A stretch of DNA of 17,424 nt from Gemmatimonadota bacterium (GTDB taxonomy: Bacteria > Gemmatimonadota > Gemmatimonadetes > Longimicrobiales > RSA9). Position numbers and translations under genes: made by a program. Positions 3 to 16,008 of this stretch are shown one piece after another (within the stretch, counting starts at the first letter, position 1; each line of letters begins with the position of its first letter). The notes beneath the pieces were generated by a model. It made no database searches and was not told the DNA's origin. It saw only the letters and a program-made list of their open reading frames with translations. Location of the stretch: the NCBI GenBank assembly GCA_040905425.1, contig JBBDRO010000102.1, positions 1 to 17,424 of the forward strand, written 5' to 3'.

Positions 3-635
3 TGGTGGCTGGACAACAGCCGGCTGGACTTCCCGCGCGGCTACCACATCGAGGTGTGGGGGGGGCTGGGCGAGCCGGGTAGCGGCTTCATGGGCGGCAT
101 CCAGCGCTACCCGGGCGGCGGCGGCTACGGCGCGGAGCTGAAGGCGCAGTATCGGAAGTACTACGGCACCTCCATCGGCTTCTCGGGCCGGGGAGAGATG
201 ATCCCCAATGACAACTCTTACTGCGAGATCGATCCGGAGGTGACGGACCGGTTCGGGATCCCCGTGCTGCGCTTCCACTGGGAGTGGACGGACCACGAGG
301 TCAACCAGGTCAGGCACATGCAGGAGACCTTCCGCGAGCTGCTCACGCGGATGGGCGGGGAGGTGCGGGGCAGCATGCCGTCCCGGGAACGCGGCTACGG
401 CATTGCCACGGGCGGCAGCATCATCCACGAGCTGGGGGGCACGCGCATGGGCAGCGATCCCGCTACCTCGGTGACCAACGGCTGGGGGCAGACGCACGAC
501 GTCGAGAACCTCTTCGTGGCCGACGGCGGGCCCTTCGTCTCCCAGCCGGACAAGAACCCCACCTGGACCATCCTGGCGCTCTCCTGGCGCCTGAGTGACT
601 ACATCACCCAGCAACGCAACGCGGGGGCGCTATGA
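3..635 (+). CDS. GMC family oxidoreductase, C-terminal part (5' end outside window)
   Basis: Frame is open from position 3 (WWLDNSRLDFPRGYHIEV...). GMC C-terminal motifs: D-x-FGIPVLRF, IIHELGGTRMG, GQTHDVENLFVADG, KNPTWTILALSWR. The stop overlaps the next ATG (ATGA, 632-635). Confidence 0.93.
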   Translation, partial: WWLDNSRLDFPRGYHIEVWGGLGEPGSGFMGGIQRYPGGGGYGAELKAQYRKYYGTSIGFSGRGEMIPNDNSYCEIDPEVTDRFGIPVLRFHWEWTDHEVNQVRHMQETFRELLTRMGGEVRGSMPSRERGYGIATGGSIIHELGGTRMGSDPATSVTNGWGQTHDVENLFVADGGPFVSQPDKNPTWTILALSWRLSDYITQQRNAGAL

Positions 636-1240
636 CACCGGTGAATCGACGCGACGCGCTCAAGATGATGGCCGCGGCGCCGCTGCTCGGCGTCCTGGAG
701 TGGACGCCCGACGAGGTGAAGCGCTCGGCCATGCAGATCGACGCGCTCAGGACGCAGTACCAGCCGCAGTTCTTCAACGACCACGAGTGGCGCACGGTGC
801 ACGTCCTGGTGGACCTCATCATCCCCGCCGACGAGCACTCCGGCAGCGCCACGGACGCGCAGGTGCCCGAGTTCATGGACTTCATGCTGAACGAAGGATC
901 GCGGGGGCGGCAGAACACCATGCGCGAGGGCCTGGCGTGGCTGGACGCCGAGAGCCGCGCGCGCTTCGATGCCGACTTCCTGAGCGCCACCGATGCCCAG
1001 CGGCGCGCCATCCTGGATGACATCTCCTGGCCGGACCGCGCCCCGGAATCGGTGCGGGAGGGTGTGGGCTTCTTCAACAGCTTCCGGGACATGACGGCGG
1101 CGGGCTTCTTCTCCAGCCGCATCGGCTACGACGATCTCCAGTACATGGGCAACGCCTACGTACCCGAGTGGACCGGCTGCCCCGAACCTGCCCTGCGCAA
1201 GTTGGGCGTCAGCTACGACCTCATGGAGACGCGCCGATGA
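632..1240 (+). CDS. Gluconate 2-dehydrogenase subunit 3 family protein with Tat signal
   Basis: Twin-arginine signal VNRRDALK. Family motifs FF-x-DHEW, DLIIPAD, SATDAQVPEFMD, GFFSS-x-IG and LQYMGN. Lies directly downstream of a GMC large subunit. Confidence 0.9.
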   Translation: MTPVNRRDALKMMAAAPLLGVLEWTPDEVKRSAMQIDALRTQYQPQFFNDHEWRTVHVLVDLIIPADEHSGSATDAQVPEFMDFMLNEGSRGRQNTMREGLAWLDAESRARFDADFLSATDAQRRAILDDISWPDRAPESVREGVGFFNSFRDMTAAGFFSSRIGYDDLQYMGNAYVPEWTGCPEPALRKLGVSYDLMETRR

Positions 1241-2499
1241 GCCGGGAGCGCCTCGGCATCGGCTTCATCGGCAGCGGCTTCATCACCCGGTTCCACCTGC
1301 GCTCCCTGGTGGGCGTGCGGGACGCCGATGTCTTCGGCGTGTGGAGCCCCACCCGCGCGAATGCAGAGGAGGCGGCCGCGCTCGCGCGCGAGCTGGGCGT
1401 GGGCCCGGCGGAGGCCTTCGACTCGATCACGGACATGGTGGCGGATCCGCGCATCGACGCCATCTGGCTGTGCGGCCCCAACCACGCGCGCATCCAGAAC
1501 GTGCAGGAAATCGTGGACACGCTCGCGAGCGGCAAGGGTGAGCTCAGCGCCATTGCGTGTGAGAAGCCGCTCGCCAGGAACGTGGCCGAGGCGCGCCAGG
1601 TGCTGCGGCTGGTCAATGACGCGGGGCTCCAGCATGGCTACCTGGAGAATCAGCTCTTCGCGCCGCAGGTGGAGACCGGCCGTGCGCTGTCATGGGGCCG
1701 CGGCGCGGCCGCCACCGGCCGGCCCTACCTGGCGCGCGCCGCCGAGGAGCACGGCGGGCCGCACATGCCGTGGTTCTGGCAGGGCAGCCTGCAGGGCGGC
1801 GGCGTGCTGAATGACATGATGTGCCATTCCGTGGAGGTCGTGCGCCACCTGTTGACCCGGCCCGGTGAACCGCGCGCCTCCCTCACGCCGCTCAAGATCA
1901 CCGGCCACATAGCCAGCCTGAAGTGGACCCGTCCGGAGTACGTGGAGCGCCTGGCCCGGACCATGGGCGCGGAGGTGGACTACGGGCACGCGCCGGCGGA
2001 GGACTTTGCCAGCGTGGTGATCGAGTTCGGCTCCGCGGATGGCCACATCGTGGTGGGGGAGGCCACCACCTCCTGGAGCTTCGTGGGCGCGGGGCTGCGC
2101 CTCTCCGCCGAGCTCCTGGGGCCGGAGTACTCCATGAAGTGGAACACGCTGGACACCGGCCTCGAGCTCTTCTTCAGTCGGGAGGTGGCCGCCGAGGCGG
2201 GGGAAGACCTGATCGAGAAGCAGAACGCCGAGGTGGGCCAGATGCCGGTCGTGGCCCAGGAGTGGGTCGCCTACGGCTACGAGGCCGAGAACCGCCATTT
2301 CGTGCGCGCCTTCCTGGAGGGCCGAGCGCCCATGCTGACCTTCGAGGACGGCGTGGAGGTGGTCCAGCTCCTCATGACGGCCTACCAGAGCGCCGAGGAG
2401 GGCCGCACGCTGGCCTTCCCACCGCCCGGGCTGGACGACTTCGTTCCGGCCGTGGCCCGCGGCGCGTGGCAGCCACCGCAGCACCCGAGCGCCGGCTAA
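1237..2499 (+). CDS. Gfo/Idh/MocA family NAD(P)-dependent oxidoreductase (no signal peptide)
   Basis: Start placed at ATG 1237 (ATGA overlap with the upstream stop). Rossmann [14 protein letters not shown] motif, [11 protein letters not shown]. Confidence 0.92.
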
Positions 2500-2536
2500 G
2501 GCGCCCGGTTCACCCACCACCCGGGAGCAGGCACGC

Positions 2537-4036
2537 ATGTCCAACAAGGGAATGAGCCGCCGCAGCTTCGTGGCGGGTACCAGCAAGGCCGCGCTCGGCG
2601 CCTCCCTGGCCCCGCTGGTGGTGCCGCGCCACGTGCTGGGCGCCGGCTACCAGGCGCCCAGTGACACGCTGAACATGGCCGTGGTGGGCATGGGCCAGCA
2701 GGGCACGGAGAACATCGAAGCGCTCATCCGCACGGAGAACCTGGTGGCGGTCTGTGACGTGGACTTCGGCTTCGCGGAGCGCACCGTCCGGAACAAGCGC
2801 ACCAACCGGGAAGGCGAGCCGCGCGAGACCGGCGTGCTGCTGAATGACGCCTTCGACCGGGCGGCGCGCTTCACGGACTTCCGCGTGATGCTCGAGCGGC
2901 AGCCCGATATCGATGCCGTCATCGTGGCCACGCCGGACCACCTGCACGCGCACATCGCCAAGGCCGCCATGGAGCTGGGCAAGCACGTCTACGTGCAGAA
3001 GCCGCTCACCTACTCGGTGCACGAGGCGCGCGTGCTGCGCCGCGTGGCGGCCGAGACGGGCGTGGTCACGCAGATGGGCAATCAGGGCCACTCAGGGGAC
3101 GACGGCCGGCGGGTCAACGAGTGGCTCGAGGCGGGCGTGATCGGCACGGTGGACGAGGTGTACATCTGGACCAACCGGCCCATCTGGCCGCAGGGCGTGC
3201 CGTGGCCGGCGGGTGCGGAGATGGAGGCCGTGGACGCGGACGCCGGCTGGGGCCGCGGCGCCCTGAACCGCCGGGTGGCGGCCGGGCTCGGCGGCTCCTA
3301 CGCGCCGCCCGACGGCATGGATTGGGAGCTCTACCAGGGACCCATCGCCGCGGACGTGCCCTACCATCCCATCTACCACCCGTTCAACTGGCGTGGCTGG
3401 GTGCCGTTCGGCGTGGGCGCGCTCGGGGACATGGGCGCGCACCTGCTGGACCACCCCTACTGGGCGCTCGGTCTGACCTACCCCACCAGCATCGAAGCCA
3501 CCTCCACGCCGTGGGGCGGTAGCCGGCGCAACCCCGCTTCCTACCCGCTGGCCACGGCCGTCCACTACGAGTTCCCGGCACGTGGTCTGCTGCCTCCCGT
3601 GCGGCTGCACTGGTATGACGGCGGCCTCATGCCGCCGCGGCCGGCCATGCTGCCCGATGACGTGCGGCTGAACGCCGAGGGCGGCGTGCTTTACGTGGGA
3701 CGCAGGGGCCTGCTGATGCACGAGACGTACGGCAACAACCCGCGCCTCTTCCCCGACCACCTGCAGGCCGAGGCGGACGCCGTGCCTGAAACGTACCGGC
3801 GCATCGAGGGCGGCCATCAGGAGAACTTTGCCCGCGCCTGCAAGGGGGAGGATGAGGCGACGTCCCCGTTCGACTACGCGGCGCCGCTCACCGAGACCAT
3901 GCTCCTCGGCATCGCCGCGCTGCGTGGGGGTGCGGGGCAGAAGGTGCTCTATGACGCCGAGCGCATGGAGTTCACGAACATGCCGGACGCGAACCAGTAC
4001 CTGACGCGGGAGTACCGCGCCGGCTGGACCCTTTGA
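2537..4036 (+). CDS. Tat-exported Gfo/Idh/MocA family oxidoreductase
   Basis: Signal MSRRSFV. Motifs [36 protein letters not shown] and GALGDMGAH. Purine-rich GGAGCAGG upstream. Confidence 0.93.
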
Positions 4037-4065
4037 ATTGACGCCCGGAAGGAGCACGCCCATCC

Positions 4066-4818
4066 ATGCTGCGGTCATCCTGGCTGATCCCCCTGGCGGG
4101 CGCCGCGGCGCTCGCGTGCGCGAGCGAGCCCCGCGCCGCCGCCACCCCGGACACGGCGGGGGCCAGCGCCGCCACCGCTGACGTGGCGGCGCCCAACACG
4201 CTCTCGGCGGCGGAAGTACAGGAGGGCTGGCGCCTGCTCTTCGACGGCACCACCACCGCGGGGTGGCGCGGCTACAAGCAGGACACCATGCCCGCCGGCT
4301 GGGAGGCCGTGGACGGCGCGTTCACGCGCGCCAGCCGCGCGCGGGACATCATCACCACGGAGCAGTTCGAGGACTTCGAGCTGACCCTGGAGTGGAAGAC
4401 GGTGGAGGGCGGCAACAGCGGCGTGTTCTTCCGTGTCATCGAGGGTGAGGGGCCCATCTACCACTACGCGCCCGAGATCCAGGTACTGGACGATGGCGGC
4501 CACCCCGACGGTCGCAGCCAGCTCACCTCCGCGGGCGCCAACTACGGCCTGCATCCTGCACCCAGGGGGGTGGTCCGTCCGGTCGGCCAGTGGAACACCA
4601 TCCGCCTGCTGGTGGAGGGCCCGCGCGTGCGCCACTGGCTGAACGGCCAGCTGATGGCGGACTACGAGATCGGCAGTGAGGACTGGCAGCGCCGGGTGGC
4701 GGAGAGCAAGTTCGCCGCGTGGCCCGACTACGGCCTGGCGCCGCGCGGCCACATCGGCCTCCAGGAGCACGGTAGCTGGGTGGCCTTCCGCAACATCAAG
4801 CTGCGCGAACTGCCATGA
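4066..4818 (+). CDS. DUF1080 (3-keto-disaccharide hydrolase family) lipoprotein
   Basis: Lipobox ALAC. Motifs GWRLLFDG, DFELTLEWK, GNSGVFF, GQWN, GHIGLQEHG and FRNIK. RBS AAGGAG upstream. Confidence 0.92.
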   Translation: MLRSSWLIPLAGAAALACASEPRAAATPDTAGASAATADVAAPNTLSAAEVQEGWRLLFDGTTTAGWRGYKQDTMPAGWEAVDGAFTRASRARDIITTEQFEDFELTLEWKTVEGGNSGVFFRVIEGEGPIYHYAPEIQVLDDGGHPDGRSQLTSAGANYGLHPAPRGVVRPVGQWNTIRLLVEGPRVRHWLNGQLMADYEIGSEDWQRRVAESKFAAWPDYGLAPRGHIGLQEHGSWVAFRNIKLRELP

Positions 4819-5051
4819 GCGAGCGCATCCGCACCGAGAAGTGGTGGCTGTCCCGCGGCTCCGAGAGCTGCCCCGTCTGCTTCCACCGCTACGTGTACGA
4901 GATGGAGGTGCGGTGCACGGCGTGTGACGGCCCGCTGTGCTCCCAGTGCGCGGTGACGGTGTGGGAGACCCACGAGCGCTTCTGCCCGGGGTGCCAGGAG
5001 GACGGGCAGGTGGAGGAGCGGACGAAGATGGAGGCGGGGACGTCGCTTTAG
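4815..5051 (+). CDS. Small 8-cysteine (4x CxxC) putative zinc-binding protein, 78 aa, function unknown
   Basis: CPVC, CTAC, CSQC and CPGC motifs. ATGA overlap with the DUF1080 stop and a 7-bp gap to ku. It fills the intergenic space exactly, with GC-rich third codon positions. Confidence 0.8.
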   Translation: MSERIRTEKWWLSRGSESCPVCFHRYVYEMEVRCTACDGPLCSQCAVTVWETHERFCPGCQEDGQVEERTKMEAGTSL

Positions 5052-5058
5052 AGGAAGC

Positions 5059-5838
5059 ATGGCACGAGCCATCTGGAAGGGTGTGATCCGCTTCGAGGAC
5101 GAGGAGGTGCCGGTCAAGCTGTACGCGGCCGTGGAGGATCGGTCCGTCCATTTCCGGTTGTTGAACGAGCGCACGAAGCACCCCGTGAAGCAGCGCATGG
5201 TGCACCCGGAGACCGGCGCGGAGGTGCCCTACGACGAGGTGCGGCGCGGGTACCAGACCGAGGACGGGCGTATCGTGCTGCTGGACGAAGAGGAGCTGGC
5301 GGCGCTCGAGTCCGAGGCCGCCCGGGACATCCACATCACGCGCTTCGTCCCCCCCGAGAAGCTCAATCATCAGTGGTACGACCGCCCCTACTACCTGGGA
5401 CCCGACGGCGCCGAGGGGGCGTACACGGCGCTGGCGCGCGCGCTGGAGCGGCAGGGGCGCGAGGGCGTGGCGCGCTGGACCATGCGCAAGAAGGAGTACC
5501 GCGGCGCGCTGCGGGCGGAGGACGGGCACCTGCTGCTGATCACGCTGCGCAGCGCCGATGAGGTGGTGGCCGCCGCGGAGCTGCCCCGCCCCGAGGGCCG
5601 CAAGCTGGACGCGCGCGAGCTGAAGATGGCGCACCAGCTTATCAGCGCGCTGGAGGACGCGTGGGAGCCCGCCGCCTGGCAGGACGAGTACCGCGAGCGG
5701 GTCATGGAGCTGGTGGAGGCCAAGGCGGCGGGCAAGACGGTGACGTTCAGGAAGCCGAAGGCGCGGCGGGAGGAGAAGTCGCTGGAGGAGGCGCTGAAGA
5801 AGAGCGTGGCGGCAGCCAGAAAGGGCAAGGCGGCGTAA
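5059..5838 (+). CDS. ku: Ku protein (NHEJ DNA end-binding), copy 1, divergent, 259 aa
   Basis: MARAIWKG-x-I-x-F, VPVKLY, RGYQ, RFVP, YDRPYYLGPD and DEYRERV motifs. Short basic tail. RBS GAGGA. Confidence 0.93.
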   Translation: MARAIWKGVIRFEDEEVPVKLYAAVEDRSVHFRLLNERTKHPVKQRMVHPETGAEVPYDEVRRGYQTEDGRIVLLDEEELAALESEAARDIHITRFVPPEKLNHQWYDRPYYLGPDGAEGAYTALARALERQGREGVARWTMRKKEYRGALRAEDGHLLLITLRSADEVVAAAELPRPEGRKLDARELKMAHQLISALEDAWEPAAWQDEYRERVMELVEAKAAGKTVTFRKPKARREEKSLEEALKKSVAAARKGKAA

Positions 5839-6752
5839 TGCCCGGCGCCTTCTGGTCCGGCACCATCACCTTCGGCCTGGTGAACGTGCCCGTGGCGCTC
5901 TTCCCCGCCAACCGCGCCGGCGGCGTGTCCCTGCGCATGCTCGCGCCCGACGGCACGCCGCTGGAGCGCCAGTACTACGACCCCGAGACCGGCAAGCGCG
6001 TCCTCTACGACGAGGTCGTGCGCGGCTACGAGATCCAGAAGGGGGAGTTCGTCGTGCTCGACGACGACGAGCTGGAGGCGCTGGAGCCGGAGAAGACGCG
6101 CGAGATCGACCTGCGCCGCTTCGTCCCCGTGGCTGACATCGACCCCATGCACTTCGAGCGCGCCTACTTCCTGGTGCCCGACTCCGGTTCGAACAAGGCC
6201 TACCGACTGCTGGCCGAGGCCATGGAGAAGACCGGCATGGCGGGCATTGCCACCTTCGTCATGCGCACCAGGGAGTACCTGGTGGCCATCCTGGCCGAGG
6301 AGGGCATCCTGCGCGCTGAGACGCTCCGCTTTGCCGACGAGCTGCGCGCGCCCGAGGCCGCCGGCCTGGACGCCCTGCCCAGCGCCAAGCCCGCCGACGT
6401 GAAGCGCTTCGAGAAGGCCATACGCGCTCGCGCTAAGGCGGACATCGACGAGAAGGAGCTACGCGATGACTACGCCGAACGGCTGCTGAAGCTGGTCCGC
6501 CGCAAGCAGAAGAAGGGGGAGGACGTGGTGGACGCGCCGGCGGGGGACGGCGAGCGTGACACGGACGTCATCGACCTCATGGCGGTGCTGAAGCGGAGCA
6601 TGGCGCAGGCGGGGGAGACCACGGGCGGCGGCGGCTCGCTGAAGAGTCTCACCAAAGAGGAGCTCTACGAGCGCGCGCAGGCGATGGACATTCCCGGCCG
6701 CAGCTCCATGACCAAGGCCCAACTCATCCGCGCCATCGAGCGGGTAGCGTAG
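5838..6752 (+). CDS. ku: Ku protein, copy 2, 304 aa, with C-terminal HeH/Rho_N/SAP-like domain
   Basis: Start at ATG 5838 (TAATG overlap with the ku1 stop). Motifs WSGTITFGLVNVPV, VRGYE, IDPMHFERAYFL, LRFADE and VIDLMAVLKRS. A Gly linker leads to LTKEELYERAQAMDIPGRSSMTKAQLIRAI. Confidence 0.95.
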   Translation: MPGAFWSGTITFGLVNVPVALFPANRAGGVSLRMLAPDGTPLERQYYDPETGKRVLYDEVVRGYEIQKGEFVVLDDDELEALEPEKTREIDLRRFVPVADIDPMHFERAYFLVPDSGSNKAYRLLAEAMEKTGMAGIATFVMRTREYLVAILAEEGILRAETLRFADELRAPEAAGLDALPSAKPADVKRFEKAIRARAKADIDEKELRDDYAERLLKLVRRKQKKGEDVVDAPAGDGERDTDVIDLMAVLKRSMAQAGETTGGGGSLKSLTKEELYERAQAMDIPGRSSMTKAQLIRAIERVA

Positions 6753-6763
6753 TAAGCGACGTC

Positions 6764-6827
6764 CCCGTTCACCTTCCCGTTCACCTTCCCGTTCACCTTC
6801 CCGTTCACCTTCCCGTTCACCTTCCCG
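6764..6827. repeat. Perfect 12-bp tandem repeat (CCCGTTCACCTT)x5 plus CCCG
   Basis: Units start at 6764, 6776, 6788, 6800 and 6812. The array begins just after the ku2 TAG-TAA stops. Confidence 0.97.
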
Positions 6828-6867
6828 GCGCCCACCCCGACGGCTCCCGACGCCCCTTGGCGTGGCC

Positions 6868-7066
6868 GGGTGTAAATCTGCGCAATGGCGGCCTGCAGGG
6901 CGGCCGTTGTGCATGATGGCCCGCCTGGGGCGCCAGAATGCGCAATGGCGCTCAGCAGGCAATCGCGGTTGTCCGTTTTGACCCGCAGGGCGGGTCGAAC
7001 TGCACAAGCGCCAGGTGCAGCGGGCGTCGATGTGCATTGCAGCCCGCCGAGGCGCTGAAACCGGAC
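6868..7066. repeat. Degenerate ~61-bp-period array of alternating inverted motifs (REP/BIME-like hairpins)
   Basis: Forward arms TTGTGCATGATGGCCCGC (6907), TTGTCCGTTTTGACCCGC (6969) and ATGTGCATTGCAGCCCGC (7030). Reverse arms end in TGCGCAA (6879, 6939) or TGCACAA (7001). TGCGCAATGGCG is exactly duplicated at 6879 and 6939. Confidence 0.65.
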
Positions 7067-7106
7067 TCGCCCCCGCGCCGTAGTCCCTGACCAGAGCACA
7101 GTACGC

Positions 7107-7136
7107 TTGTCGTGCCCCCCTGTGGAGTCGTATTGT
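7107..7136 (+). promoter_or_regulatory. Candidate sigma70 promoter for the ABC operon
   Basis: TTGTCG (7107-7112), 18-bp spacer, TATTGT (7131-7136). Confidence 0.4.
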
Positions 7137-7222
7137 CGCACGGGGGCCGGCTCGCCCGCCCCCGCCGCCGCGTCCGGCTGCTTCGGGACGGGGCGCTCCC
7201 CACTCGCCACCATGGAGGCCCG

Positions 7223-8164
7223 GTGCCGCTGCTGCGTGCCGACAATCTCACCAAACGCTACCCGGGTGGCGTGCTGGCGCTGGATGACTTCACGCTGGCG
7301 CTCGAGCCGGGGCTGATCGGCCTGGTGGGCGCCAACGGCGCCGGCAAGAGCACCTTCATCAAGATCCTGCTGGGGCTGCTGCAGCCCACTGCCGGGAGCG
7401 TGAGCGTGCTGGGGCTCGATCCCACCTCGGACCCCATTGCCGTGCGCCAGCGCATCGGCTATCTGCCGGAGCACGACTGCCTGCCGTCCGATCAGAGCGC
7501 GGCGGACTTCATCACGCACATGGCGCGCATCTCGGGGCTGCCGCAGAACTCGGCGCGCGAGCGGGCCGCGGAGATGCTCCGCCACGTGGGGCTCTACGAG
7601 GAACGCTACCGCCTCATGGACGGCTACTCCACGGGCATGAAGCAGCGCGTCAAGCTGGCGCAGTCGCTGGTGCACGACCCGGCTCTCCTCCTGCTCGACG
7701 AGCCCACCAACGGGCTGGACCCCAACGGGCGGGACGAGATGCTGGACCTGATCAAGCGCACGGGGGAGGAGTTCGGCATCAGCGTGGTGGTCTCCTCGCA
7801 TCTGCTGGGTGAGATCGAGCGCGTGTGCGGCTACCTGGTGTCCATCGACAACGGCAAGCTGGTGCACTCGGCCGCCATCGGCTCCTTCACGGCCGAGACC
7901 GCGGTGCTGGCGGTGGAGGTGGACGAGGGCGCCGAGGCGCTGGCGGCGCGGCTCACGTCCGCGGGGCTCGAGGTCCGCATGGACGCGCGCGGCGGCCTGC
8001 ACATCGGCATGCCGGACGAGCGCCCCTATGACCTGGTGCGGGACATGGTGGCCGAGCTGGGCCTGCCGCTCGTGCGCGTCCAGCGGACGCGCCAGCGGCT
8101 GGACGAGCTCTTCCGCGCTCCGGAACCGACCACCGCGGCCACCGCCGCACGAGAGGAGGGCTGA
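7223..8164 (+). CDS. ABC transporter ATP-binding protein (ABC-2 exporter type)
   Basis: GTG 7223 follows GGAGG (7214-7218). Walker A GANGAGKST, signature YSTGMKQR, Walker B LLLDEPT, H-loop SSH. Confidence 0.93.
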   Translation: MPLLRADNLTKRYPGGVLALDDFTLALEPGLIGLVGANGAGKSTFIKILLGLLQPTAGSVSVLGLDPTSDPIAVRQRIGYLPEHDCLPSDQSAADFITHMARISGLPQNSARERAAEMLRHVGLYEERYRLMDGYSTGMKQRVKLAQSLVHDPALLLLDEPTNGLDPNGRDEMLDLIKRTGEEFGISVVVSSHLLGEIERVCGYLVSIDNGKLVHSAAIGSFTAETAVLAVEVDEGAEALAARLTSAGLEVRMDARGGLHIGMPDERPYDLVRDMVAELGLPLVRVQRTRQRLDELFRAPEPTTAATAAREEG

Positions 8165-14712: not shown

Positions 14713-15714
14713 TCAGAGCAGGAGCACCGTGAAGAGCACCACGCCCACCATCACCGCCACCAGCGCGGTACCGTAGCTCACCAGCAGGAAAAGCATGCGC
14801 ACGGCGGTCCCCGCGCGCGAACCCTGATAGACCCGGCGGAGCGCCACGAAGAGATAGAGCAGGATCAGCAGCACGGTGAGGCCGCCGATCCACTCGGCGT
14901 GGAACAGCGCCTCCGCCAGAGCGCTCAGGGTGAGCAGCTGAAAGCCCGCCGCGTGCACGTGGAGCGCGAAGACGAAGTGCTCCACGTAATACTGGCGCCG
15001 GTCCAGATAAGCGAAGCCGAGGAGCAGCGCGAAGGCCGGCACGAGCAGGAACACGCCCGTGGGGAGGCGGTTCCGGACGCCCTCACCGATGGCCCGGGCC
15101 GCCTCCTCGCGCTCCATCTCGTTCAGACGCAACAGGCGGCGCTTGCCCCACGCCACGATGGCGTTGTCATCTTTGTTGACCACCATGTAGAGCCATGTAT
15201 CATCTTCGGGCGCGGCATCCTCTCCGGACGCCGTCTCCTGTCCGGGCGCTGCCTCCTCTCCAGCCGGCGTCTCCTCCCCGGGCGCCGTCTCCTCCCCGGG
15301 CGCAGTCTCATGCTCATCGATCCGGACGCTGACGGGTGCACCCCGCTCGGAGTCGTCCCTCGACCCCATCTCGAACACACCGGTCTCGTCCACCAGGGCC
15401 AGGGTCACGAAGCACACGATGCTGGCCATGAGATAGAGTCGGAACGGCGGCACGTAGCGCACGATCCGCCCGCGCACGTACTCCTCGGTGAGTTTGCCCG
15501 GCTGGAGGAAGAGGGCAGCGAGCGTGCGCGGCAGCGCGGAATTCAGGGAGAGTTGATCGTCGAGCGCCTCCCGGAGCATGCTCCAGACGGATACGCGCAC
15601 GTCCACTTTGCGCTGCCCGCATGTGGGGCAGTAGAGGCCCGGCGCCGGATCCCCGCAGTTGGGGCACGGCTGCAGCGGCCTGGCGCGGGCAGGCATCCGG
15701 GTCGTGGACGTCAT
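14713..15714 (-). CDS. DUF3667 domain-containing membrane protein
   Basis: CPNCG...YCPTCGQ zinc ribbon, TL-x-x-LFLQPGKLT-x-EY-x-x-G-x-x-VRYVPPFRLYL, YYVEHFVFALH, and C-terminal TMs. Start at ATG 15714 or 15696. The open frame extends to 15921 through a RecQ remnant. Confidence 0.88.
   Translation of the reverse strand: MTSTTRMPARARPLQPCPNCGDPAPGLYCPTCGQRKVDVRVSVWSMLREALDDQLSLNSALPRTLAALFLQPGKLTEEYVRGRIVRYVPPFRLYLMASIVCFVTLALVDETGVFEMGSRDDSERGAPVSVRIDEHETAPGEETAPGEETPAGEEAAPGQETASGEDAAPEDDTWLYMVVNKDDNAIVAWGKRRLLRLNEMEREEAARAIGEGVRNRLPTGVFLLVPAFALLLGFAYLDRRQYYVEHFVFALHVHAAGFQLLTLSALAEALFHAEWIGGLTVLLILLYLFVALRRVYQGSRAGTAVRMLFLLVSYGTALVAVMVGVVLFTVLLL
15202..15309 (-). repeat. Six degenerate 18-bp in-frame repeats (ETAPGE-like) in the DUF3667 loop
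   Basis: Encodes ETAPGE ETAPGE ETPAGE EAAPGQ ETASGE DAAPED. Confidence 0.85.
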
Positions 15715-15732
15715 GGGACCAATATCGACGGT

Positions 15733-15906
15733 CCGCTCCGCTTTGCGATAGAGGATGCTGCACAGTGCGAGCTGGCCATCCCGACCCGCGCGGCCCGCTT
15801 CCTGATAGTCAGCCTCGGATGAGCCGGGATAGTCATTGTGGACCACATAACCTATATCCGAATTGTCTATCCCCGGGCCAAACTCACTGGTGGCGATGAC
15901 GCCCAG
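15733..15906 (-). pseudogene. recQ: Degenerate fragment of a RecQ-family helicase (motifs V-VI)
   Basis: VIATSEFGPGIDNSDIGYVVHNDYPGSSEADYQEAGRAGRDGQLALCSILY resembles the RecQ consensus VATNAFGMGIDKPDVRFVVH-x-D-x-P-x-S-x-E-x-YYQEAGRAGRDG-x-x-A-x-C-x-LLY. Conserved positions are substituted and there is an in-frame stop at 15937-15939. Confidence 0.8.
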
Positions 15907-16008
15907 ACGTTTCCTGGGCACACGGGGAGCGCCTGACTACGGACACAGCTGTTTATCTGTTGCGCCGGCCTTCGCCACCGATGAGTGGACCCACTGCGCT
16001 CGGAGGAC

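Follow-up and report, generated by a model that had tools for sequence, protein, structure and literature searches.

A zinc-protein gene linked to tandem ku genes in several bacterial phyla, and a candidate Ku heterodimer with a predicted plug

Bacterial end joining is taught as the work of one symmetric Ku together with LigD. A stretch of 17,424 nucleotides from a Gemmatimonadota genome (contig C102 of a 4.1 Mb assembly that is 96.7% complete), called the window below, carries two tandem ku genes, kuA and kuB, directly behind the gene of a small protein with eight cysteines, here called the zinc protein, and raises the question of what two Ku proteins and such a partner could do together. The answer that we prefer, held with moderate confidence from sequence analysis and structure modelling, is that KuA and KuB would make a polar heterodimer for LigD-dependent end joining, and that the zinc protein produced with them would serve as a plug closing the ring until it is displaced.

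Linkage and distribution of the three-gene module

The first-pass annotation of the window had described a 78-aa open reading frame (ORF) with four CxxC pairs, a 7-bp gap, a first ku gene, a TAATG overlap and a second ku gene. All of these coordinates hold; the CxxC pairs are C19/22, C34/37, C42/45 and C57/60. What that account missed is the upstream context, where the start of the zinc gene overlaps the stop of a hydrolase gene (ATGA). We surveyed the source genome and 60 relatives for the three genes. Among these 61 genomes, 58 have a Ku match and 21 a tandem ku pair; the zinc protein occurs in 15, and a Ku match comes immediately after every copy save one at a contig end. A search with an alignment of 15 zinc proteins, containing no Ku, gave 62 loci on genome contigs and, from metagenomes, the best 80 of 170 stretches. 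At the genome loci, kuA is next to the zinc gene in 60 of 62 (the misses are one contig end and one weak non-member) and kuB follows in 57, failing after kuA at two contig ends and one truncated kuA. At the metagenome loci, kuA comes next in 74 of 80 (five contig ends and one probable artefact) and kuB then in 58, all 16 misses after kuA being at contig ends. Six of the eight kuA misses are thus contig ends; L130 (22 bits, probably a non-member) and L191 (an inverted self-copy after the zinc gene, probably an assembly artefact) were counted as misses. The carriers belong to Gemmatimonadota, Acidobacteriota (Blastocatellia and Thermoanaerobaculia), Planctomycetota and Gammaproteobacteria, four phyla in all. 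A lack of linkage between homologues of the small ORF and ku, which would have spoken against the first account, was not seen. Chance neighbourhood of the zinc gene and ku was ruled out, the linkage being far beyond chance.

Approached from the Ku side, the zinc gene stands before 13 of 20 Longimicrobiales pairs, before 23 of 24 Pyrinomonadales pairs (27 minus the centre genome and two unpublished genomes) and before all three new gammaproteobacterial KuA. The seven Longimicrobiales pairs without it comprise four with room upstream, two at contig ends and one divergent broken pair. None of the 35 single-Ku loci has a zinc gene, and no intact solitary KuA or KuB was seen among 20 further Ku loci. 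A third Ku is also present in 25 of the 27 Pyrinomonadales genomes that bear a pair, a count that includes the two unpublished genomes. The gap between the zinc gene and kuA is at most 10 bp in 111 of 121 loci and stays so while the flanking genes vary by lineage. The kuA/kuB gap is at most 10 bp in 45 of 108 junctions and longer in 63, and a 1-bp overlap occurs in only two; the TAATG overlap, which had been taken as a sign of 1:1 synthesis, is therefore poor evidence for it, because it is not conserved. Since the closest relative, L132, has a 15-nt gap at this place, the overlap in the window likely arose through a small deletion.

The zinc-protein family comprises 511 representatives at 50% identity, with lengths of 58–127 aa in the best 150 of them. 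A phylum-wide search found it in at least 2 of 301 genomes, which is a lower bound as 20 candidates were scored per genome. A homologue search with the single sequence recovered one relative only, and the clusters nearest to the protein in the ESM Atlas are unnamed hypothetical proteins. Among 4276 longer candidates, none joined the zinc domain to Ku or LigD, which is weak evidence. An anti-phage role had also been proposed for the module, and nothing was found in its support. No relatives of the zinc protein were found in viral contigs; a search with the KuA alignment gave seven viral Ku, each with its best score as the single type and none with a zinc gene; and defence genes are not among the recurrent neighbours of the module (no PADLOC scan was made). 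The phage or defence link was rejected, neither the zinc protein nor a KuA-type Ku having been found in viral contigs.

Some loci hold broken modules: the zinc gene with a truncated kuA (L259, G011 C96), a fragmented kuA with the start of kuB at a contig end (L257, G033 C330), and a divergent kuA-like gene with a kuB fragment (L053, G017 C60), the last of which was excluded from the Ku alignment. In three Longimicrobiales genomes (loci L040, L044 and L050), the same upstream gene, which we take to resemble isocitrate lyase, ends right against the module, whether or not this includes the zinc gene.

The absence of ligD nearby had been remarked on, and a Pfam scan of the 16 window proteins indeed returned no LigD-like protein, but LigD is encoded in trans. 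The genome search that had been suggested found one full copy, 627 aa with ligase and primase-polymerase domains, on another contig (C20:47277-49043; 699.8 bits, cut-off 373), and the only Ku matches in the source assembly are KuA and KuB. Across the module loci, ligD falls within the fetched flank at one of 62 genome loci (4 kb) and one of 80 metagenome loci (3 kb), many contigs being short. Eleven pair-bearing genomes, including the source, have a high-scoring LigD (630–720 bits) on a contig or region without ku, and the single ku of these genomes, where present, has a lower-scoring LigD beside it; the high-scoring, ku-free LigD is possibly a dedicated partner ligase.

Upstream regions of the module contain a GG-N10-GC element, which has the spacing of the sigma54 -24/-12 promoter consensus. 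Of 86 dereplicated loci (L130 and L191 left out), 60 have the pattern GG[CA]A-N6-[TA]TGC in the 200 nt before the zinc gene, a count that is partly circular because the pattern was picked by eye from 27 of the same upstream regions. It lies mostly 27–53 nt before the profile match, and its background was 6 antisense, 1.1 in shuffled sequence, 4 of 76 further upstream and 1 of 30 at single ku. The source genome also encodes rpoN. Transcription of the operon in most relatives likely starts at a sigma54 promoter. A scan of positions 3900-7300 of the window gave neither a sigma70 promoter nor a terminator, and the source copy seems to be read through from an upstream sugar-oxidation operon. At the Pyrinomonadaceae loci L071-L202, a Crp-like regulator, response regulators and a sensor kinase (labelled from the appearance of their sequences) recur near the operon and are candidates for its control.

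Division of Ku residues between KuA and KuB

Both proteins are Ku by profile (TIGR02772, 249.9 and 250.3 bits, cut-off 150; PF02735 also matched), their Ku core begins at residue 12-14, and they share 39% identity over 230 columns. In a quick IQ-TREE run of 85 rows, three of them alphaproteobacterial, KuA and KuB each form a clade with 100% support and a stem of about one change per site. KuA and KuB are thus old, separate clades, as the divergence noted at first had implied; a recent ku duplication is ruled out by these long-stemmed clades. Against L132, kuA shows 22 synonymous and 8 non-synonymous codon changes.

We mapped the two proteins onto the structure of Bacillus subtilis Ku, where each arm of the ring is built in trans (PMC12784961). 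The surface for filament formation and synapsis consists of the GLVNIP loop and alpha2 of one chain with alpha3 of the other, and the second DNA motif of one chain's barrel with R188 of the other (PMC12784961). Loss of oligomers has been described for L30G in B. subtilis Ku (PMC12784961) and for L13A/V14A in Mycobacterium tuberculosis Ku (PMC12658125). Residues were counted after dereplication at 70%, in 31 KuA, 33 KuB and 18 single Ku of the same order. The leucine of the synapsis loop, L30, is absent from all 31 KuA and present in 33/33 KuB and 18/18 single Ku; R188 is likewise Arg in no KuA, in 32/33 KuB and in 17/18 single Ku. Position L142 is Ala in 29/31 KuA and Leu in every KuB and single Ku. 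The reverse is found at two further positions: E206 is Glu in 30/31 KuA, 5/33 KuB and 18/18 single Ku, and A210 is Ala in all KuA and all single Ku and in none of the KuB, 30 of which have Phe, Ile, Leu or Met. The C-terminal D250 (M. tuberculosis numbering) is kept in at most 4/31 KuA, in 32/33 KuB and in 18/18 single Ku. The DNA-contact arginines are kept in the Ku pair.

Put together, the arm made of the KuB barrel and KuA alpha3 would be intact for synapsis, and the arm made of the KuA barrel and KuB R188 would be intact for DNA; neither a KuA nor a KuB homodimer would hold both intact arms. From these complementary losses we infer a polar heterodimer; that KuA and KuB form a heterodimer is very probable.

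The tails differ as well. A Rho_N-type C-terminal motif, of the helix-extension-helix type, occurs in 23 of 102 KuB, in none of 125 KuA and in none of 30 single Ku; this tail is presumably analogous to the SAP tail of Ku70. The bridge His/Cys residues of Ku, which act as a zinc ribbon, are lacking in KuA and KuB, in contrast to the chains of B. subtilis and M. tuberculosis. Residues of the C-terminal helix of M. tuberculosis Ku modulate the binding of DNA and LigD (PMC9638933, PMC13717202). Two particulars of the window's KuB may be added: it is about ten residues shorter at the N-terminus than that of L132 (window 5838-5850 vs L132:4000-4080), and at one position, where 31 of 33 KuB carry Arg, it carries Gly.

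The zinc protein and its predicted complex with KuA and KuB

The zinc proteins share the pattern W-W-L...CxxC...E-x-R-CxxC-D...CxxC...CxxC. In 122 aligned members, seven Cys and D38 are invariant and W11, L12, R33 and C60 are conserved at 90% or more; the core is net negative in 120 of them (median -5), and the N-terminal tail is basic (median +2). No Pfam or NCBIfam family matched at its cut-off, the best Pfam score being 17.8 bits against 27.3, and a Pfam scan of 15 members gave weak, scattered matches. The core of the structure model has a pLDDT of 90-94. Its best fold matches, with middling Z and in tied rows, are the RIM zinc finger 2cjs_C (Z 5.1, rmsd 2.3, 50 aligned) and the FYVE domain 2yw8_A (Z 5.0, rmsd 3.0, 51 aligned), and Foldseek returned no match at E ≤0.001. 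The predicted fold suggests a binuclear FYVE/RIM-like finger, which, from its eight conserved Cys, would hold two zinc ions.

We then folded the zinc protein with KuA, residues 1-258 of KuB and two zinc ions, in three runs and with three controls. The complex scored 0.86 in the three runs against 0.03 for the best control, and 0.03 once KuA was replaced; agreement of contacts between runs was at least 84% and partner pLDDT at least 79. The KuA-KuB part of the model resembles solved Ku dimers, and we know of no solved complex like that of the zinc partner. The confident contacts cover 10 of the 12 B. subtilis positions of DNA motif 1 (KuA 32, 33, 34, 44, 45 and 63; KuB 32, 34, 44 and 62) and extend to motif 2 (KuA 3, 5, 6, 109, 111 and 143; KuB 108 and 143), and both chains contribute their R126 and R161 equivalents to the interface. 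In the model, invariant D38 is placed against KuA R109/Y111, E29 against KuB R143-R145 and W11 against KuB R62, and KuA Q45 and KuB R44, each invariant and specific to its subfamily, fall within the predicted interface. Because these contacts are on the residues of DNA motifs 1 and 2, the prediction has the zinc protein filling the DNA cradle, and because of this place in the DNA channel it resembles a plug or a chaperone more than it does a co-factor that works on DNA. That the zinc protein binds KuA and KuB directly is probable on the strength of this model, and it is fairly likely that it does so in the DNA channel, in competition with DNA. The earlier suggestion of a heteromeric Ku with a dedicated zinc partner is supported in this way by the reciprocal loss of interface residues and by a predicted complex that passed its controls.

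A mechanism can be outlined from these elements. Loading of the KuA-KuB ring would have a fixed direction, the KuA arm lying on the inner duplex and the KuB arm facing the break. Where homodimeric Ku grows an open filament, two such rings would instead meet across the break, KuB facing KuB. Heterodimers would gain over homodimers from a small-for-large swap, in which (B. subtilis numbering) L142 is Ala in KuA and A210 is Phe, Ile, Leu or Met in KuB. The intact V-I-D-L helix of KuB may recruit LigD, a step that we only infer because the reported effects of single changes in the M. tuberculosis helix on LigD affinity are modest (PMC9638933, PMC13717202). The zinc protein, translationally coupled to kuA, would bind the DNA-binding residues of both subunits, so that the heterodimer would be selected and stored closed. 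DNA ends, or oxidation of the plug's cysteines, might release it, which is a guess; redox release taken by itself seems unlikely. Tentatively, and at somewhat less than even weight, in bacteria of at least four phyla a polar, non-filament Ku heterodimer may have evolved independently of eukaryotes and rhizobia, held off DNA by a DNA-mimicking zinc plug that would be released on damage or oxidation.

Several observations speak against the plugged heterodimer. Firstly, Lys is found at K23 and at K36 in 29 KuA each and does not figure among the residues common there in KuB, but the single Ku have it in only 9 of 18 cases, which leaves this part of the polarity argument weak, and alpha2 and alpha3 are called poorly conserved and peripheral in the B. 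subtilis paper (PMC12784961). Secondly, the linkage counts (60/62 and 74/80) come from loci that are kin and not independent, two related groups dominating them; four intact pairs with room upstream (L044, L045, L049 and L051) and one of the 24 Pyrinomonadales pairs do without the zinc gene, and the interface residues of pairs lacking it seem unchanged, which argues that the zinc protein can be done without and that Ku bears no clear mark of it. Thirdly, the core charge of the source genome's zinc protein is only -2, its gene differs from that of L132 by 4 synonymous and 7 non-synonymous codon changes, which alone carry no purifying signal, and conservation at the interface residues of the family exceeds that of its other residues only slightly (0.55 vs 0.47). 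Fourthly, DNA was not part of the modelled complex, an acidic protein in a basic ring is a placement that the model would favour, and the unrelated controls also made 90-123 contacts, none of them confident; the score mark, at which 116 of 157 solved complexes passed along with 2 of 215 mismatched pairs, is calibrated only roughly for this case because author-supplied alignments and the ligand lie outside the calibration. Lastly, apart from the circularity mentioned above, only 13 of 24 Ku-led loci match the sigma54-type pattern strictly, with one-base variants in several more, and the pattern is absent from the sense strand of the window and from the vicinity of the source genome's ligD.

Other readings were weighed on the same evidence. 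A zinc protein that stays on the ring for good, as a third subunit or an end cap limiting inward sliding or protecting the end and perhaps replacing the missing bridge zinc site, is improbable: such a cap would fit the tight coupling to kuA, the predicted binding to both chains, the lack of bridge His/Cys in KuA and KuB and the basic tail, but the predicted contacts, spanning motif 1 and the R126/R161 equivalents on both arms, leave no room for a duplex, the core is acidic, many single Ku also lack the bridge Cys and have no such partner, and five intact pairs lack the zinc gene. We give no better prospects to an assembly chaperone only, which would template the KuA-KuB ring, prevent homodimers and leave passively on DNA binding. 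This overlaps with the plug, the sole difference being that it has no gating role; intact-looking pairs without the zinc gene and homodimeric Ku rings purified and solved without such a factor count against it, and the asymmetric contacts to both chains, the collapse of the score once KuA is replaced, the invariant KuA Q45 and KuB R44 in the interface and co-translation with kuA count for it. Still less probable is a zinc gene that only travels with a sigma54 stress operon under shared control, encoding a metal or redox sensor or a regulator that makes no contact with Ku, and a complex score that is a false pass. Seven of 44 blind neighbours did pass the complex-prediction mark, the conservation excess at the interface is weak, the promoter element is shared and the gene is dispensable in some lineages; however, away from kuA and with room to look, only one weak match and one inverted-copy locus were found, the junction with kuA keeps to 10 bp or less as the flanks change, and the complex score stands 0.83 above the best control. 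Finally, independent KuA and KuB homodimers with divided tasks, or a module that protects ends or acts against phage without LigD, are very improbable, for all that LigD is rare in the flanks (1/62 and 1/80), the kuA/kuB gap exceeds 10 bp in 63/108 loci and a third Ku accompanies 25/27 Pyrinomonadales pairs, as a homodimer of either kind would have only half of each surface built in trans, solitary intact copies were not seen, the pair is the only Ku of the source genome with its one LigD, no zinc protein or KuA-type Ku appeared in viral contigs and the recurrent neighbours are not defence genes.

Known Ku systems and the setting of the locus

The plugged KuA-KuB heterodimer, our preferred reading, can be set against known systems. 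In Sinorhizobium meliloti, a ku3-ku4 operon acts with LigD4, and a heterodimer, the one proposed for a bacterium, has been put forward from genetics (PMC6379672). There too, two divergent ku genes are in tandem with ligD unlinked, and by our mapping the first gene has likewise lost the loop leucine and the V-I-D-L motif and the second keeps both, which suggests convergence. In contrast, the three pSymB Ku form a clade of their own (support 99) apart from KuA and KuB, in a quick tree with thin sampling, so that Ku3/Ku4, the tandem pair named in the first-pass annotation, are not orthologous to KuA/KuB in that tree. The first S. meliloti gene scores 162 on the KuA profile vs 138, the second 159 on the KuB profile vs 132, and both score higher on the single-Ku profile. 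S. meliloti also has no zinc gene upstream, lacks the alpha3/R188 remodelling and uses RpoE2/EcfG control, unlike the likely sigma54 element of the module's relatives. The homodimeric Ku-LigD systems of B. subtilis (PMC12784961) and M. tuberculosis (PMC12658125) share with the module a Ku core above the TIGR02772 cut-off and a LigD in the genome. There, however, the GLV synapsis loop, R188 and alpha3 are in one chain and the symmetric ring forms filaments from both arms; here they are split between KuA and KuB, a dedicated third protein is present and ku is not beside ligD.

Like Ku70/Ku80, KuA-KuB would be a polar heterodimer without open filaments, and in both, one subunit alone carries a small helical DNA-binding tail, Rho_N in the case of KuB and SAP in that of Ku70 (PMC4889933). 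KuA and KuB (259 and 304 aa) have no vWA domain by Pfam and are bacterial-type Ku sequences, and the likeness is one of analogy, with no evidence of ancestry. The vaccinia proteins C16/C4 also bind a Ku heterodimer and sterically block the entry of DNA to the ring (PMC9674614), but these are viral antagonists of the host, whereas the predicted 78-aa blocker comes from the cell's own ku operon. With the FYVE, RIM-rabphilin, PHD and RING cross-brace fingers the zinc protein shares eight Cys in four CxxC pairs; unlike them it is acidic, stand-alone, bacterial and below every Pfam cut-off.

Our searches of open-licence papers and preprints turned up no account of the module or of a plug for bacterial Ku, though such pairs might be listed in supplementary material (the genome table of PMC7719229, Figure 6 of PMC6379672); the available parts of PMC7719229, PMC11936186, PMC4889933, PMC5124664 and bioRxiv 2023.09.30.560322 do not mention it. 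The module offers a compact, testable case, with predictions at the level of residues, of a homodimeric ring turning polar, the step that separates bacterial Ku from Ku70/80. Its zinc protein is a candidate third component, which would explain what prevents Ku from occupying replication-derived ends before it is required. A plug that proves real would be a small natural on/off switch of bacterial end joining, useful for editing the genomes of laboratory strains, and an unusual use of a FYVE-like zinc finger by bacteria.

Table 1. Features of the module and its upstream neighbour in the window
Feature	Position	Strand	Description
3-keto-disaccharide hydrolase gene	4066..4818	+	context, outside the module; stop overlaps zinc gene start (ATGA)
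Zinc protein gene	4815..5051	+	78 aa, eight Cys in four CxxC pairs, unnamed family
Spacer zinc gene/kuA	5052..5058	+	7 bp, purine-rich; tightest conserved junction of the module; likely ribosome-binding site of kuA
kuA	5059..5838	+	259 aa; own-barrel DNA-gripping residues and helix alpha3 kept; FGLV synapsis loop and R188 equivalent lost
KuA site of lost FGLV loop	residues 12-16, nt 5092-5106	+	residue mapping
kuB	5838..6752	+	304 aa; start in TAATG overlap with kuA end (position 5838); FGLV loop, R188 and V-I-D-L C-terminal helix kept; alpha3 remodelled
KuB FGLV loop	nt 5871-5882	+	residue mapping
KuB C-terminal Rho_N domain	6639..6740, residues 268-301	+	PF07498, 28.3 bits vs cut-off 24.9

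In the window the Ku module appears to hang on the end of the sugar-oxidation operon, without a promoter of its own (Table 1). The ATGA junction between hydrolase and zinc gene has an identical sequence in L132, and the hydrolase neighbour forms no recurrent cluster among 79 loci. Positions 3-4818 hold an overlapping run of genes for a GMC oxidoreductase, a gluconate 2-dehydrogenase subunit 3-like protein, two Gfo/Idh/MocA proteins and the 3-keto-disaccharide hydrolase, likely a 3-keto-glycoside pathway; the start of this operon lies beyond the contig edge. Directly 3' of the kuB stop (6764-6827) there are 5.3 perfect copies of a 12-bp unit. No second array of this unit is present in the source genome (seven unit copies altogether), and L132 has a longer, less perfect one at the equivalent place after kuB. 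Further along, on the minus strand, an ORF for a DUF3667 membrane protein (14713-15921) has a 5' extension with a weak helicase C-terminal match, perhaps a gene remnant, and an 18-bp repeat within the region of this ORF (15203-15309) codes for an acidic linker.

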